From Escherichia coli (GTDB lineage Bacteria > Pseudomonadota > Gammaproteobacteria > Enterobacterales > Enterobacteriaceae): 64,000 bases of DNA. Shown here one piece after another: positions 12,929-28,402 of this stretch (position 1 is the first letter of the stretch; every line of letters begins with the position of its first letter). A model generated the notes under the pieces. That model was not told the origin of the DNA, did not search any database, and saw nothing but the letters and a program-made list of their open reading frames with translations. Location: the NCBI RefSeq assembly GCF_030384885.1, contig NZ_CP128613.1. The stretch is one strand, 5' to 3'. The position numbers were made by a program, and so were the translations under genes.

Positions 12929-15190
12929 TTACGCCGGGATTTTGTCAATCTTAGGAATGCGTGACCACACGCGGTGTGCTGCCATCAGCGTTAACAGTTC
13001 ATCCATAAAACTACCATCGGCGCTATCGGCTTCTACAATACCTTCTTCACCCTGATCATCAACTTTGATTGTCGCCTTAAACTTGCGCGCGTCTCCTGCC
13101 AGTGCAATCGGTTTGAGGTGTTTGTAGGCTTCCATCAGGTAGTAGTTGGCATCGCCGTTGTCAGCGATGTCCGCGATATTGCCGCAAGGGACAATGACCG
13201 CATCGACCGTCAGCGAAGGCGCTCCGGCAAAGGTAGCGGCTATAGGCAGCACAGTACCGTCATCCGCAGTCACTTCACCCATTCGAGAGTAGAGTAGTTT
13301 GGCATGAACGCCTTTGGCCTTCAGCGCCTTGAGAATGGCCAGAAGGTCTGCCGATCTCACTTCATCATTAAGCAAAATCGCTACCACGCGACCTTTCACA
13401 TCACCGTCAGGAATGGCGTACAGACTTAAGGATGGATCCTTTTTCAGACCGTTGACGTCCGGAGGCGGAGTGATATTCAGCTGGTCGTCAGTCAGTTCGA
13501 TACCGAGATTTTTCGCCACTGCCTGGGCCAGAGTGAGATCAATATGCGCCAGTTGGTCTACAACGCGCTCACGAATATAAGGGCGTACAACTTTGCTTAA
13601 CTCAAAACTGAAACCATCGACAATATGCCGCTGCTCGAACGGCGTCTGACTTAACCAGAACAGGCGCGGATGAGAATAATATTCGCCAAATGACGGGCTA
13701 CGTTCGCGCACTTTATTGCCTTCCACGCGCTCCTGATATGACTCAAATCCGCCACGTTTTGGCCCTGGTGGTGTTTCGCGCGGCCAGTTATCGTTGATCG
13801 AGTTGGGTTCGTAATTCGCCGGGTTAGTGTCGATACCCATGCGGTGCATGCCATCACGCTGGAAGTTGTGGTATGGGCAGGTCGGGCGGTTAATCGGAAT
13901 TTCATGGAAATTGGGTCCGCCAAGACGACTGATTTGTGTATCGGTATAGGAGAACAAACGTCCCTGTAACAGGGGATCGTTGGTGAAGTCCAGACCTGGA
14001 ACAATATGACCTGGATGGAAAGCTGCTTGTTCGTTTTCGGCAAAGAAGTTATCCGGATTACGATTGAGCACCATTTTGCCGACACGCTGAACGGGCACCA
14101 GTTCTTCCGGGATAAGTTTAGTTGGATCAAGAAGGTCGAAGTCGAACTTAAATTCATCTTCTTCAGGAATCAACTGGAAGCCCAGTTCGTATTCCGGGAA
14201 ATCACCTGCTTCAATCGCTTCCCACAACTCGCGGCGGTGGAAGTCCGGGTCACGTCCGGTTAGTTTTTGTGCTTCATCCCAAACGAGCGAGGCTTTACCT
14301 GCCAGTGGTTTCCAGTGGAAACGAACGAACGTCGCTTTACCTTCGGCGTTAATCAGACGGAAGGTATGAATACCAAAGCCTTCCATAGTGCGGTAACTGC
14401 GCGGGATCCCGCGATCCGACATCGCCCACATCACGTTGTGCAGAGTTTCAGGTTGCAGAGAAACATAATCCCAGAAAGTATCGTGAGCACTTTGCCCTTG
14501 CGGAATTGCCCAATGCGGTTCTGGTTTTACCGCATGGACAAAATCAGGGAATTTATGCGCATCCTGAATAAAGAAGATCGGTGTGTTGTTACCAACAAGG
14601 TCAAAAATACCCTCTTCAGTGTAGAACTTGGTCGCGAAGCCACGGATATCTCGCACCGTATCCGCCGAGCCAGCACCACCCTGAACGGTAGAGAAACGTA
14701 CAAATACTGGGGTGATTTTGTTCGGATCTGAGAGGAAATCCGCTTTGGTGATATCGCTTAAGCTTTTATATGGCTGGAAATAACCGTGAGCGGCTGATCC
14801 GCGCGCATGAACAATTCGTTCCGGGATGCGCTCATGGTCAAAGTGAGTGATTTTCTCGCGCAGAATAAAATCTTCCAGCAGTGTTGGGCCACGGCTACCG
14901 GCGCGTAGGGAGTTTTGATCATCGGCGATGCGTACACCCTGGTTGGTGGTAAGTGCATAATTTTCACTACCTTTGCGTACGTCTTCCAGAGAATTAAGTT
15001 TTTCGTTACGCGTATCAGGGGCTTTCAGGCTCCCTGGGGCGGTAGGTTGTGCACCTGGCGGTGTTGGTTCAGCCGCTGGACGATGAGATCCGTCCTCAGG
15101 TGCCAGTGAGTCCATCCCCGGTTTCGCTTCGCTGGAATCGTGTAGTGGTGACTGGTGCTGATGTGGGTTCTTTTCGTTATGTTGCGACAT
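12929..15190 (-). CDS. katE: Catalase HPII
   Basis: 753-aa ORF with catalase motifs ([22 protein letters not shown]); size typical of large-subunit catalases. Confidence 0.95.
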
Positions 15191-15393
15191 TGAACTCGTC
15201 TCCTTAATGTATTACTGAAAGGGCCGCTGTTTTGGTCAAAAAACTCTCTAACTATAGACCACCAGCCAGATCCCGCTTCGGAGACTATTCTGGAAACGGT
15301 GTTATGAAATACACGCAAAGCGGGACGTACAGGGGCTAAATCGGCTAAACTACAGTTTTTCTGATTTTTAATATGCGTTTAGTGAAGCCAGTA

Positions 15394-15636
15394 ATGAAGA
15401 AACCGCTCCGTCAGCAAAACCGCCAGATTATTAGCTATGTCCCACGCACGGAACCCGCGCCGCCAGAACATGCGATAAAGATGGATTCGTTTCGTGATGT
15501 CTGGATGCTGCGTGGCAAATATGTTGCGTTTGTACTGATGGGAGAGTCATTTCTGCGCTCACCGGCGTTTACTGTGCCTGAATCCGCCCAGCGTTGGGTA
15601 AATCAGATCCGCCAGGAAGGGGAAGTGACTGAGTAA
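15394..15636 (+). CDS. cedA: Cell division modulator CedA
   Basis: Track ORF 15373..15636; start set at ATG 15394 (MKKPLRQQNRQIISYVPRTEP), 80 aa. Confidence 0.85.
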   Translation: MKKPLRQQNRQIISYVPRTEPAPPEHAIKMDSFRDVWMLRGKYVAFVLMGESFLRSPAFTVPESAQRWVNQIRQEGEVTE

Positions 15637-15912
15637 GGATTACGTACCTCCCGGTTTTGCCGGGAGTTACATGGCCTGAAATTTTGTATTTCATTGCTAC
15701 ATTCATTCAAACCACCTGTAACAAAAAGCTGCCTTTGACGATCTATTGCTATAAATAAGTGATCTTTTTTCTTTAATTGTTTATTTATTTTAAAATGGTT
15801 AAGTTTTGCTAATCATGATGAGCTATTTTTGATAGTTCATCCTGTGGCGTCGCTCTTAAACTTATATTGTAAATGACTTAGATTTAAATGAGATAATAAT
15901 TTTGTTAACAAT

Positions 15913-16728
15913 ATGAGGCGGGAGATGTTTTCTACAAACTTAATACAGAGTAATTATGGTGATTTAAATATTAAAAGCCTGGCTTTCGACTCTTTTAAAG
16001 AAAGGCTGCAGTCTACTATGACAGCACTCACTTTCTTTATATCAACGGGGCAATGTGACTGCGATGAAATAGCAGAATCAAACTTTAATTATATGATTGC
16101 CTATATGTCTAACATTAACTATGATGCCTCAAAGCCAGGAGCGCCAGCACTTAGTTTTGATACATATCTGCAGGACAATGTTAAATATAGAGTAATAATT
16201 AATAATCTTTATGGTAGTGAAATTCGGATAAGAGGTATAAATAAAGATTTTATTGGAATGGATGTCGCTTCTGTATTTCGCCCAGAAAAGATGACCAATT
16301 TGATCAATATAAAAAACAGGTTGGTTATTCACTATTTAAGGACTATATACTATGAACAAAATTATATACATCCTGCCGGGAGTATTTTTTCTGCAATTCA
16401 AAAAAATGAGAGTCTCCTAAAGTTTCCTTCGGTAATATCAATGCTTAATGTCAATCTTCTTTTTAATCCACTGAATCTTCCGGGAATGGGAAGTGGTGTG
16501 CTTGAAGAGATTATGAGTATTTCAGATAGTTCACTTAGAAAACGTCTTGGGTATGAGGTTTTAAGCTTCTCGCTACAAGCACATTCATTGAGTCAGGAAT
16601 GTATTGATAAGTTAGCCATTTTTTTCGCTGACGATCTGTTTAAATATGAGTCAGTATGCATCGCCGCGATGGAACATTTAAAAAGTAAGGCAACGGCCCC
16701 TATACAAAACGGACCGTTGCCAGCATAA
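15913..16728 (+). CDS. ydjO: Uncharacterized protein YdjO (AT-rich)
   Basis: 271-aa ORF (a second in-frame ATG at 15925 would give 267 aa); strongly AT-rich with AT-rich upstream region. Confidence 0.8.
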   Translation: MRREMFSTNLIQSNYGDLNIKSLAFDSFKERLQSTMTALTFFISTGQCDCDEIAESNFNYMIAYMSNINYDASKPGAPALSFDTYLQDNVKYRVIINNLYGSEIRIRGINKDFIGMDVASVFRPEKMTNLINIKNRLVIHYLRTIYYEQNYIHPAGSIFSAIQKNESLLKFPSVISMLNVNLLFNPLNLPGMGSGVLEEIMSISDSSLRKRLGYEVLSFSLQAHSLSQECIDKLAIFFADDLFKYESVCIAAMEHLKSKATAPIQNGPLPA

Positions 16729-16731
16729 GAA

Positions 16732-26473: not shown

Positions 26474-28402
26474 ATGCCTGTTATAACTCTTCCTGATGGC
26501 AGCCAACGCCATTACGACCACGCTGTAAGCCCCATGGATGTTGCGCTGGACATTGGTCCAGGTCTGGCGAAAGCCTGTATCGCAGGGCGCGTTAATGGTG
26601 AACTGGTTGATGCTTGCGATCTGATTGAAAACGACGCACAACTGTCGATCATTACCGCCAAAGACGAAGAAGGTCTGGAGATCATTCGTCACTCCTGTGC
26701 GCACCTGTTAGGGCACGCGATTAAACAACTTTGGCCGCATACCAAAATGGCAATCGGCCCGGTTATTGACAACGGTTTTTATTACGACGTTGATCTTGAC
26801 CGCACGTTAACCCAGGAAGATGTCGAAGCACTCGAGAAGCGGATGCATGAGCTTGCTGAGAAAAACTACGACGTCATTAAAAAGAAAGTCAGCTGGCACG
26901 AAGCGCGTGAAACTTTCGCCAACCGTGGGGAGAGCTACAAAGTCTCCATTCTTGACGAAAACATCGCCCATGATGACAAGCCAGGTCTGTACTTCCATGA
27001 AGAATATGTCGACATGTGCCGCGGTCCGCACGTACCGAACATGCGTTTCTGCCATCATTTCAAACTGATGAAAACGGCAGGGGCTTACTGGCGTGGCGAC
27101 AGCAACAACAAAATGTTGCAACGTATTTACGGTACGGCGTGGGCAGACAAAAAAGCGCTAAACGCTTACCTGCAGCGCCTGGAAGAAGCCGCGAAACGCG
27201 ACCACCGTAAAATCGGTAAACAGCTCGACCTGTACCATATGCAGGAAGAAGCGCCGGGTATGGTCTTCTGGCACAACGACGGTTGGACCATCTTCCGTGA
27301 ACTGGAAGTGTTTGTTCGTTCTAAACTGAAAGAGTACCAGTATCAGGAAGTTAAAGGTCCGTTCATGATGGACCGTGTTCTGTGGGAAAAAACCGGTCAC
27401 TGGGACAACTACAAAGATGCAATGTTCACCACGTCTTCTGAGAACCGTGAATACTGCATTAAGCCGATGAACTGCCCGGGTCACGTACAAATTTTCAACC
27501 AGGGGCTGAAGTCTTATCGCGATCTGCCGCTGCGTATGGCCGAGTTTGGTAGCTGCCACCGTAACGAGCCGTCAGGTTCGCTGCATGGCCTGATGCGTGT
27601 ACGTGGTTTTACCCAGGATGACGCGCATATCTTCTGTACTGAAGAACAAATTCGCGATGAAGTTAACGGATGTATCCGTTTAGTCTATGATATGTACAGC
27701 ACTTTTGGCTTCGAGAAGATCGTCGTCAAACTCTCCACTCGTCCTGAAAAACGTATTGGCAGCGACGAAATGTGGGATCGTGCTGAGGCGGACCTGGCAG
27801 TTGCGCTGGAAGAAAACAACATCCCGTTTGAATATCAACTGGGTGAAGGCGCTTTCTACGGTCCGAAAATTGAATTTACCCTGTATGACTGCCTCGATCG
27901 TGCATGGCAGTGCGGTACAGTACAGCTGGACTTCTCCTTGCCGTCTCGTCTGAGCGCCTCCTATGTGGGTGAAGACAACGAGCGTAAGGTACCGGTAATG
28001 ATTCACCGCGCAATTCTGGGGTCGATGGAACGTTTCATCGGTATCCTGACTGAAGAATTCGCTGGTTTCTTCCCGACCTGGCTTGCGCCGGTTCAGGTTG
28101 TTATCATGAATATTACCGATTCACAGTCTGAATACGTTAACGAATTGACGCAAAAACTATCAAATGCGGGCATTCGTGTTAAAGCAGACTTGAGAAATGA
28201 GAAGATTGGCTTTAAAATCCGCGAGCACACTTTGCGTCGCGTCCCATATATGCTGGTCTGTGGTGATAAAGAGGTGGAATCAGGCAAAGTTGCCGTTCGC
28301 ACCCGCCGTGGTAAAGACCTGGGAAGCATGGACGTAAATGAAGTGATCGAGAAGCTGCAACAAGAGATTCGCAGCCGCAGTCTTAAACAATTGGAGGAAT
28401 AA
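26474..28402 (+). CDS. thrS: Threonine--tRNA ligase
   Basis: 642-aa [27 protein letters not shown]... with N-terminal TGS domain and class II synthetase motifs. Confidence 0.97.

Follow-up and report, generated by a model that had tools for sequence, protein, structure and literature searches.

Between the convergent genes cedA and tcyP of Escherichia coli lies an AT-rich islet of about 1.1 kb that carries a single orphan gene, ydjO. Most probably (we put this at roughly 80%), the islet is an ancient horizontal acquisition whose one gene is weakly constrained, dispensable, restricted to its lineage and largely silenced by H-NS. The insertion, its age, and the coding status and decay of ydjO are established here by comparison of sequences, genomes and alleles, and H-NS binding is taken from the K-12 literature.

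Composition and borders of the insertion

The 64-kb stretch of DNA analysed here (hereafter, the window) contains, in order, chbG, katE (12929–15190, minus strand), cedA (15373–15636, plus; Pfam CedA, E = 5.7 × 10−45), ydjO (plus), tcyP (also ydjN; 16732–18123, minus and convergent; Pfam SDF, E = 9 × 10−107, and RefSeq annotation), ydjM and hxpB. The last base of the cedA stop codon is 15636 and the minus-strand tcyP ends at 16732 (stop codon 16732–16734), leaving an intergenic-plus-ydjO interval at 15637–16731 that is 99.9% identical to strain 2013C-4282, whose RefSeq annotation served for gene calls. An initial annotation had described this interval as AT-rich from one stop codon to the other, quoting a run at 15775–15811, and sliding-window analysis bears this out: its GC content is 0.344 (34.4%) against 0.492 for the whole window, and among all 1,095-bp windows (mean 0.491, s.d. 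0.041) it is the minimum of the 64 kb (z approximately −3.6), with the 276-bp spacer at 0.312 and ydjO at 0.355. The codon usage of ydjO, likewise described as AT-rich, is the most deviant among 47 non-nested open reading frames (ORFs) of at least 150 amino acids from the window, with the lowest third-position GC content (GC3, 0.317 versus 0.530 ± 0.053; z = −4.0) and the lowest adaptation index (0.585 versus 0.712 ± 0.042; z = −3.1, with the index derived from the window's other genes). A second AT-rich island occurs at 23861–26475 (GC 0.377–0.381 in 1,095-bp windows); it holds an intact 632-residue ORF (24055–25953, minus; GC3 z = −3.1) with a Pfam ShET2 enterotoxin N-terminal region (E = 7 × 10−46) and ankyrin repeats, which we take to be arpB, presumably a pseudogene in K-12.

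Comparison of occupied with empty sites delimited the islet. When aligned with empty sites from B2 E. coli, E. whittamii and other Escherichia, the window loses homology after CAGGAA in cedA and regains it at the tcyP stop, which places the insert at approximately 15619–16731 (full extent ~1,113 bp), beginning ~18 nucleotides within cedA and standing in place of ~64 bp of ancestral sequence. The displaced material comprised the last cedA codons and a bidirectional terminator shared by the two genes. The last five to six cedA codons (15619–15636, ...QEGEVTE*) are those of the islet haplotype, where the ancestral gene ended in ...QENEVEE* (C-termini of 14 loci compared), and the islet contributed a cedA-side hairpin, a strong minus-strand tcyP terminator and the promoter region for ydjO. 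The first of these, at 15637–15676 (plus; core CTCCCGG-TTTTG-CCGGGAG; RNA fold −19.2 kcal/mol, z = −3.3), came with the islet, is unlike the ancestral hairpin and is likely the cedA terminator, though no clean U-run follows it. The second, found by terminator scan at 16688–16721 (minus; hairpin GGCAACGGUCC...GGGGCCGUUGCC then UUACUUUUU), folds at −22.4 kcal/mol (z = −4.3) with a U-run next to it, sits within the final 14 ydjO codons, and is kept both in a deletion remnant and in E. albertii.

Empty sites are widespread. A CedA scan of one genome per species returned 52 loci, and in all 45 of the non-Escherichia Enterobacteriaceae loci with both genes placed (including Citrobacter, Salmonella, Enterobacter, Kluyvera, Klebsiella indica, Leclercia and Atlantibacter), cedA lies directly beside a convergent tcyP, across a gap that is mostly 50–110 bp and at most 911 bp (Siccibacter); a YdjO tblastn search against these 45 loci gave no match. 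The empty-site gaps that we inspected hold a single hairpin between A- and T-runs, the shared bidirectional terminator. The short empty site also occurs in five other Escherichia lineages. E. whittamii and three further lineages (L008–L010) carry the hairpin ACGCCTGTCGGGATGACAGGCGT, or a close variant in L009, with CedA ending in ...QENEVEE or ...QENEIEE. Within E. coli itself, exactly 1,126 of 5,426 complete genomes (~21%) have the empty site, with a near-identical hairpin variant, ACACCTGTCGGGATGACAGGCGT, and the remaining 4,300 have the islet. Empty-site strains include CFT073, 536, Nissle 1917, ABU 83972 and ATCC 25922, all of which we take to belong to phylogroup B2.

The segment at 15619–16731 is an insertion into a conserved cedA–tcyP junction, and the proposal of a horizontally acquired single-gene insertion is upheld by the 45 non-Escherichia loci, five Escherichia lineages and 1,126 E. 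coli genomes that have no ydjO. Conserved synteny of ydjO across the Enterobacteriaceae had been named as an observation that would speak against acquisition; the gene is absent from every one of the 45 non-Escherichia loci. Were ydjO instead an ancestral enterobacterial gene that had repeatedly been lost, with AT-richness a local mutational feature, the age of the islet and its presence in E. albertii (below) would fit, as would a search that found neither mobility genes nor a donor. However, at most of the 45 loci the gap is short and holds a bidirectional terminator of a conserved type, it is implausible that clean losses repeatedly rebuilt such a terminator, and no homologue exists anywhere else; the synteny data effectively exclude this explanation, which we regard as scarcely credible.

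In its foreign composition and its position within a conserved syntenic backbone, the islet resembles classical genomic islands, but it is only 1.1 kb long, has one gene and replaced 64 bp that included the end of cedA. Its ORFs of at least 40 amino acids are only ydjO and frames overlapping ydjO or cedA, with no integrase or transposase; no tRNA or known RNA family was found in it (Rfam returned nothing relevant); and a repeat search at its borders revealed no terminal or flanking repeats and no target duplication. At the left junction, the 3′ end of cedA (15607–15627, ATCCGCCAGGAAGGGGAAGTG) resembles a stretch within ydjO (16475–16495, ATCTTCCGGGAATGGGAAGTG) at 17 of 21 positions, probably by chance. 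One further arrangement was seen in E. coli HH97 (NZ_CP116409.1; 3547–3652 of the extracted locus), where ~105 bp of C-rich low-complexity sequence (ccctccccacccccccacccgtccccccc...) stands in place of ydjO, beginning after the islet's first 46 bp; it apparently recurs in three more genomes and probably stems from assembly or polishing, not from biology.

The neighbouring katE also varies. It is present at about two-thirds of the 45 non-Escherichia loci, going undetected beside cedA in several Citrobacter and Kluyvera loci, and in E. albertii (three loci: L007, L070 and L071) the chbG–cedA interval has no katE and only a 50-residue ORF, making the gene variably present at this locus. In the sampled E. 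coli, katE has a synonymous divergence (dS) of 0.11–0.15 versus 0.03–0.07 for cedA and tcyP, and the window's copy is only 94.9% identical to that of one divergent E. coli locus (L068, discussed below) versus 99–100% for adjacent genes, which suggests recombination in katE as well.

Age and possible exchange of the islet within Escherichia

A profile search recovered a full-length YdjO orthologue in E. albertii (P0074; 257 amino acids, 125 members, 33% identity, E = 3 × 10−41), whose gene lies between cedA and tcyP. The E. albertii islet (937 bp, GC 0.338) has the same altered cedA end (QEGEVAE) and a homologous terminator hairpin on the tcyP side, and these shared features indicate that both junctions of the E. 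coli and E. albertii islets are orthologous. The islet has been in Escherichia at least since the split of the two species, in agreement with the initial suggestion that the insertion is old. Divergence has been extensive: a blastn search of E. coli genomes with the E. albertii islet DNA gave no match, and non-synonymous divergence (dN) of ydjO between the species is 0.68, with dS near saturation and a ratio of ~0.5, compared with dS of 0.52–0.79 and dN/dS of 0.02–0.08 for the flanking genes. A GC content of ~34% has been kept in both species; this old insert has not drifted toward host composition and does not fit a simple amelioration model.

Deep variation also exists within E. coli. In the L068 allele, flanks that are 99–100% identical to the window enclose a 600-bp patch (15837–16436) of only 74–85% identity, with dS of 0.67 and dN/dS of 0.24, and the 3′ third of ydjO is again 100% identical to the window. 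The L068 ydjO is a recombinational mosaic that carries a third deep allele within E. coli. Escherichia sp. MOD1-EC7003 (L005) illustrates loss: both islet ends are kept, and 893 bp between them have gone through a microhomology deletion between direct repeats of the form TGACGATCT(A/G)TT, whose left copy at 15736–15747 (repeat family D5) and right copy at 16629–16640 (from the repeat search; both plus strand) match the endpoints read from the L005 junction sequence.

Given that ancestral-type empty sites persist in B2 and other Escherichia and that E. albertii holds an orthologue, vertical descent plus deletion is insufficient to account for the distribution of the islet, which calls for a presence/absence polymorphism of long standing or for homologous recombination that swapped one state for the other via the conserved flanks. 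A more elaborate reading would make ydjO a functional, fast-evolving, Escherichia-specific gene, its polymorphism older than the species, its alleles recombining via the cedA and tcyP flanks and its expression under the control of a candidate inverted repeat (described below). We think this unlikely; if true, it would imply a conflict-related or niche-specific role for ydjO, and not junk.

Coding status, decay and orphan character of ydjO

In the window, ydjO is an intact coding sequence of 267 amino acids (15925–16728, plus), as called from the ORF list and from the annotation of the 99.9% identical strain; the ATG at 15925 has a GAGG six nucleotides before it, and an in-frame upstream ATG at 15913 would give 271 amino acids. 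Its frame is open for 278 codons, versus a maximum of 188 in 2,000 shuffles of the islet. Five intact E. coli alleles give a dN/dS of 0.25, compared with 0.01–0.08 for cedA, tcyP and katE, and a dS of 0.12, similar to katE; nucleotide diversity is 0.044 for ydjO, 0.009 for cedA and 0.016 for tcyP, and the non-synonymous evolution of ydjO is 5–25 times that of its neighbours. ydjO is a genuine coding gene, and purifying selection on it is weak.

It is also a decaying one. Of nine sampled alleles, four are disrupted, and the lesions fall into three independent kinds: one is a T-run frameshift, another a late stop codon, and the third, found in two alleles, pairs an R118 stop with an A-run frameshift. 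The A7 run at 16400–16406 (plus) is a frameshift hotspot that marks the end of a truncated 165-residue product, and the T7 run at 16619–16625 (plus) is T6 in O157:H7 strain 1130, where the gene is annotated as frameshifted. Protein clusters reflect the same lesions, with 8,291 members for the full-length protein, 2,273 for the 165-residue A-run frameshift product and 941 for a 118-residue nonsense product. IS1 lies inside ydjO in 2 of 25 genomes among the matches listed, and published interruptions include an IS10 at codon 175 in heat-evolved K-12 and IS insertions in O104:H4 isolates (PMC10044804, PMC3486847). ydjO is dispensable: ~21% of E. coli have no copy, at least two pseudogene alleles are widespread, and the gene is a recurrent IS target.

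Such decay could point to an incidental ORF, or one with only weak function: a decaying gene or a proto-gene within H-NS-bound AT-rich DNA that is kept or tolerated as a source of terminators for cedA and tcyP. Frequent pseudogenes and dispensability would be expected on those terms, as would the long-maintained low GC content, the low-confidence structure predicted for the C-terminal half of the protein, and the fact that the C-terminus of the ORF runs through the tcyP terminator hairpin, a segment that survives in the L005 remnant. Set against this, the 267-codon frame has stayed intact both in the largest cluster and in E. albertii despite 67% amino-acid divergence, dN/dS stays under 1 at all depths examined, the chance of such a stop-free frame at islet composition is ~10−9, and ~75 alignment columns are invariant between the E. 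coli and E. albertii proteins (for example, FISTG, FN.MIA, KM..L...N.LVI and SQ.CID.L). We therefore doubt that the frame is incidental, and prefer an acquired gene held by weak selection.

The initial annotation recognised no domain in YdjO and called for a remote homology search; our searches found no significant domain in Pfam, NCBIfam, PADLOC or PHROGs and nothing natural outside Escherichia. Specifically, Pfam, NCBIfam and profiles of Protein Data Bank (PDB) sequences gave only sub-threshold noise, PADLOC and PHROGs profiles gave no family at E ≤ 1, and a fold search with the predicted structure gave no match. An exhaustive search with phmmer, covering 1.84 billion representative proteins, recovered nothing beyond E. 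coli sequences and one artefact, no natural relative outside Escherichia was found among 5.8 billion clusters, and there was no match on phages or true plasmids, three "plasmid" hits being mislabelled chromosomes of 4.8–4.9 Mb. The artefact (P0030, a 299-residue "homologue" of 27% identity on a contig, L057, from Logan SRR33321306) is E. coli cedA–ydjO DNA in which A and G have been systematically swapped (74 A>G and 57 G>A changes, with only 10 A or G positions unchanged), and it could mislead remote-homology searches in protein databases. Two AlphaFold2 runs gave mean pLDDT values of 62 and 59, with only residues ~20–140 reaching 70–86 and the C-terminal half at low confidence. YdjO may be a cytoplasmic two-domain accessory protein with an N-terminal alpha/beta domain and a C-terminal helical region. 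Literature retrieved for b1730 consisted of unrelated papers only.

Rapid change in an orphan gene raises the question of whether ydjO is of conflict type (phage defence, toxin/immunity or host interaction), kept by a balanced presence/absence polymorphism with allele exchange among Escherichia lineages. Consistent with such a role are its very fast divergence relative to neighbours, the L068 mosaic and a presence/absence pattern that does not follow species boundaries. Nevertheless, dN/dS of 0.24–0.5 gives no gene-wide sign of positive selection, ydjO is a lone gene with no partner, the defence (PADLOC), phage (PHROGs) and fold searches all came back empty, and the pseudogene frequency suits neutrality better than balancing selection. 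We consider a conflict role very improbable and retain the reading of an old, dispensable and weakly constrained acquisition.

Proposed silencing, marker use and meaning

A consensus scan found one good sigma-70-like site upstream of ydjO, ATGACT-16-AATAAT at 15873–15900 (plus; 9 of 12 matches), and Shimada et al. list identical ydjO hexamers among constitutive RpoD promoters and flag the entry HNS (PMC3946193); a SELEX peak of the RpoS holoenzyme has also been reported at the ydjO upstream region (PMC5493296). The K-12 counterpart of the spacer is one of the 78 K-12 promoter islands of Panyukov and Ozoline (2013; PMC3661553; entry 1811053_320, ydjO/cedA), tied there to genes that Nakamura (2004) and Lawrence and Ochman (1998) had predicted to be foreign. 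Those islands, defined by unusually dense predicted start points of transcription, were called with PlatProm and the algorithms differ, our consensus scan giving four promoter-like sites versus 4.1 ± 2.4 in composition-matched shuffles.

According to Table 1 of the same study (Kahramanoglou and Oshima data sets), the K-12 ydjO/cedA spacer is bound by H-NS. The two K-12 reports of H-NS (PMC3661553, PMC3946193) draw on ChIP-chip and SELEX data, and the K-12 literature describes a spacer and ydjO occupied by H-NS and a promoter that yields little full-length RNA. In its AT-richness, atypical codon usage and absence from relatives, the islet resembles xenogeneic DNA silenced by H-NS, but differs from "recently acquired" xenogeneic DNA in being much older and common to E. 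albertii. The high-affinity H-NS motif TCGATAAATT is not enriched in the islet. We infer that H-NS polymerises on the AT-rich DNA and would thereby silence the ATGACT-16-AATAAT promoter.

A 20-nucleotide block upstream (ATGAGCTATTTTTGATAGTT; 15818–15837, plus) is invariant in the examined E. coli alleles and E. albertii; it is identical in 10 of 11 fetched islet-bearing loci, the eleventh, the L005 remnant, having lost the segment, and is identical as well in the divergent L068 allele and in E. albertii. Elsewhere in the spacer, E. coli and E. albertii can hardly be aligned. The block overlaps an inverted repeat, GAGCTAT-N5-ATAGTTC (15820–15838), a pattern that occurs once in the window versus 0.02 expected, and its centre precedes the inferred transcription start by ~80 bp. 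It is our leading candidate for an operator, and the regulator that would bind it may relieve or tune silencing. Resemblances by eye to CRP, OxyR and marbox sites were too weak to assign an identity.

The gene has been reported as induced in serum together with ydjN (tcyP) in an ExPEC strain (PMC4145685), a signal that could be read-through from the convergent tcyP if the assay was not strand-specific, and a proposed link between ydjO SNPs and H2 production in LTEE lines comes from two isolates only (PMC10997342).

These results bear on the use of ydjO as a marker. YahL, YdjO and YjfZ have been described as "conserved signature proteins" of E. coli/Shigella, and ydjO was proposed as a universal and exclusive E. 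coli qPCR marker (PMC11057252). Paralogy of YdjO with YahL and YjfZ, orphans of similar length, was considered and rejected (BLASTP E values of 53 and 2.2). As a signature protein, YdjO indeed has no detectable relatives outside Escherichia; however, the gene is absent from 1,126 of 5,426 complete E. coli genomes and often a pseudogene in others, so that it is not universal, and the syntenic, 33%-identical orthologue in E. albertii means that it is not exclusive. About one complete genome in five has no ydjO, major B2 lineages of extraintestinal pathogens among them, so that qPCR assays built on the gene would under-count these strains.

As a discovery, the islet is of small value: ydjO is annotated in K-12, its foreign composition and H-NS binding are published, and the listing of the spacer as H-NS-bound and tied to foreign genes (PMC3661553) means that the H-NS and horizontal-transfer hypotheses of the initial annotation were already in print. 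The new points are small, namely the B2 absence and E. albertii orthologue that contradict the marker, and the perfectly conserved upstream inverted repeat. More generally, low GC content need not mean recent transfer, for a composition of ~34% has been kept in two species between which dS at the neighbouring genes is 0.5–0.8, and the foreign-looking composition of the islet has outlasted the age of the species. The islet is a compact case of an orphan gene that persists, diverges and decays under silencing, with one testable candidate operator.
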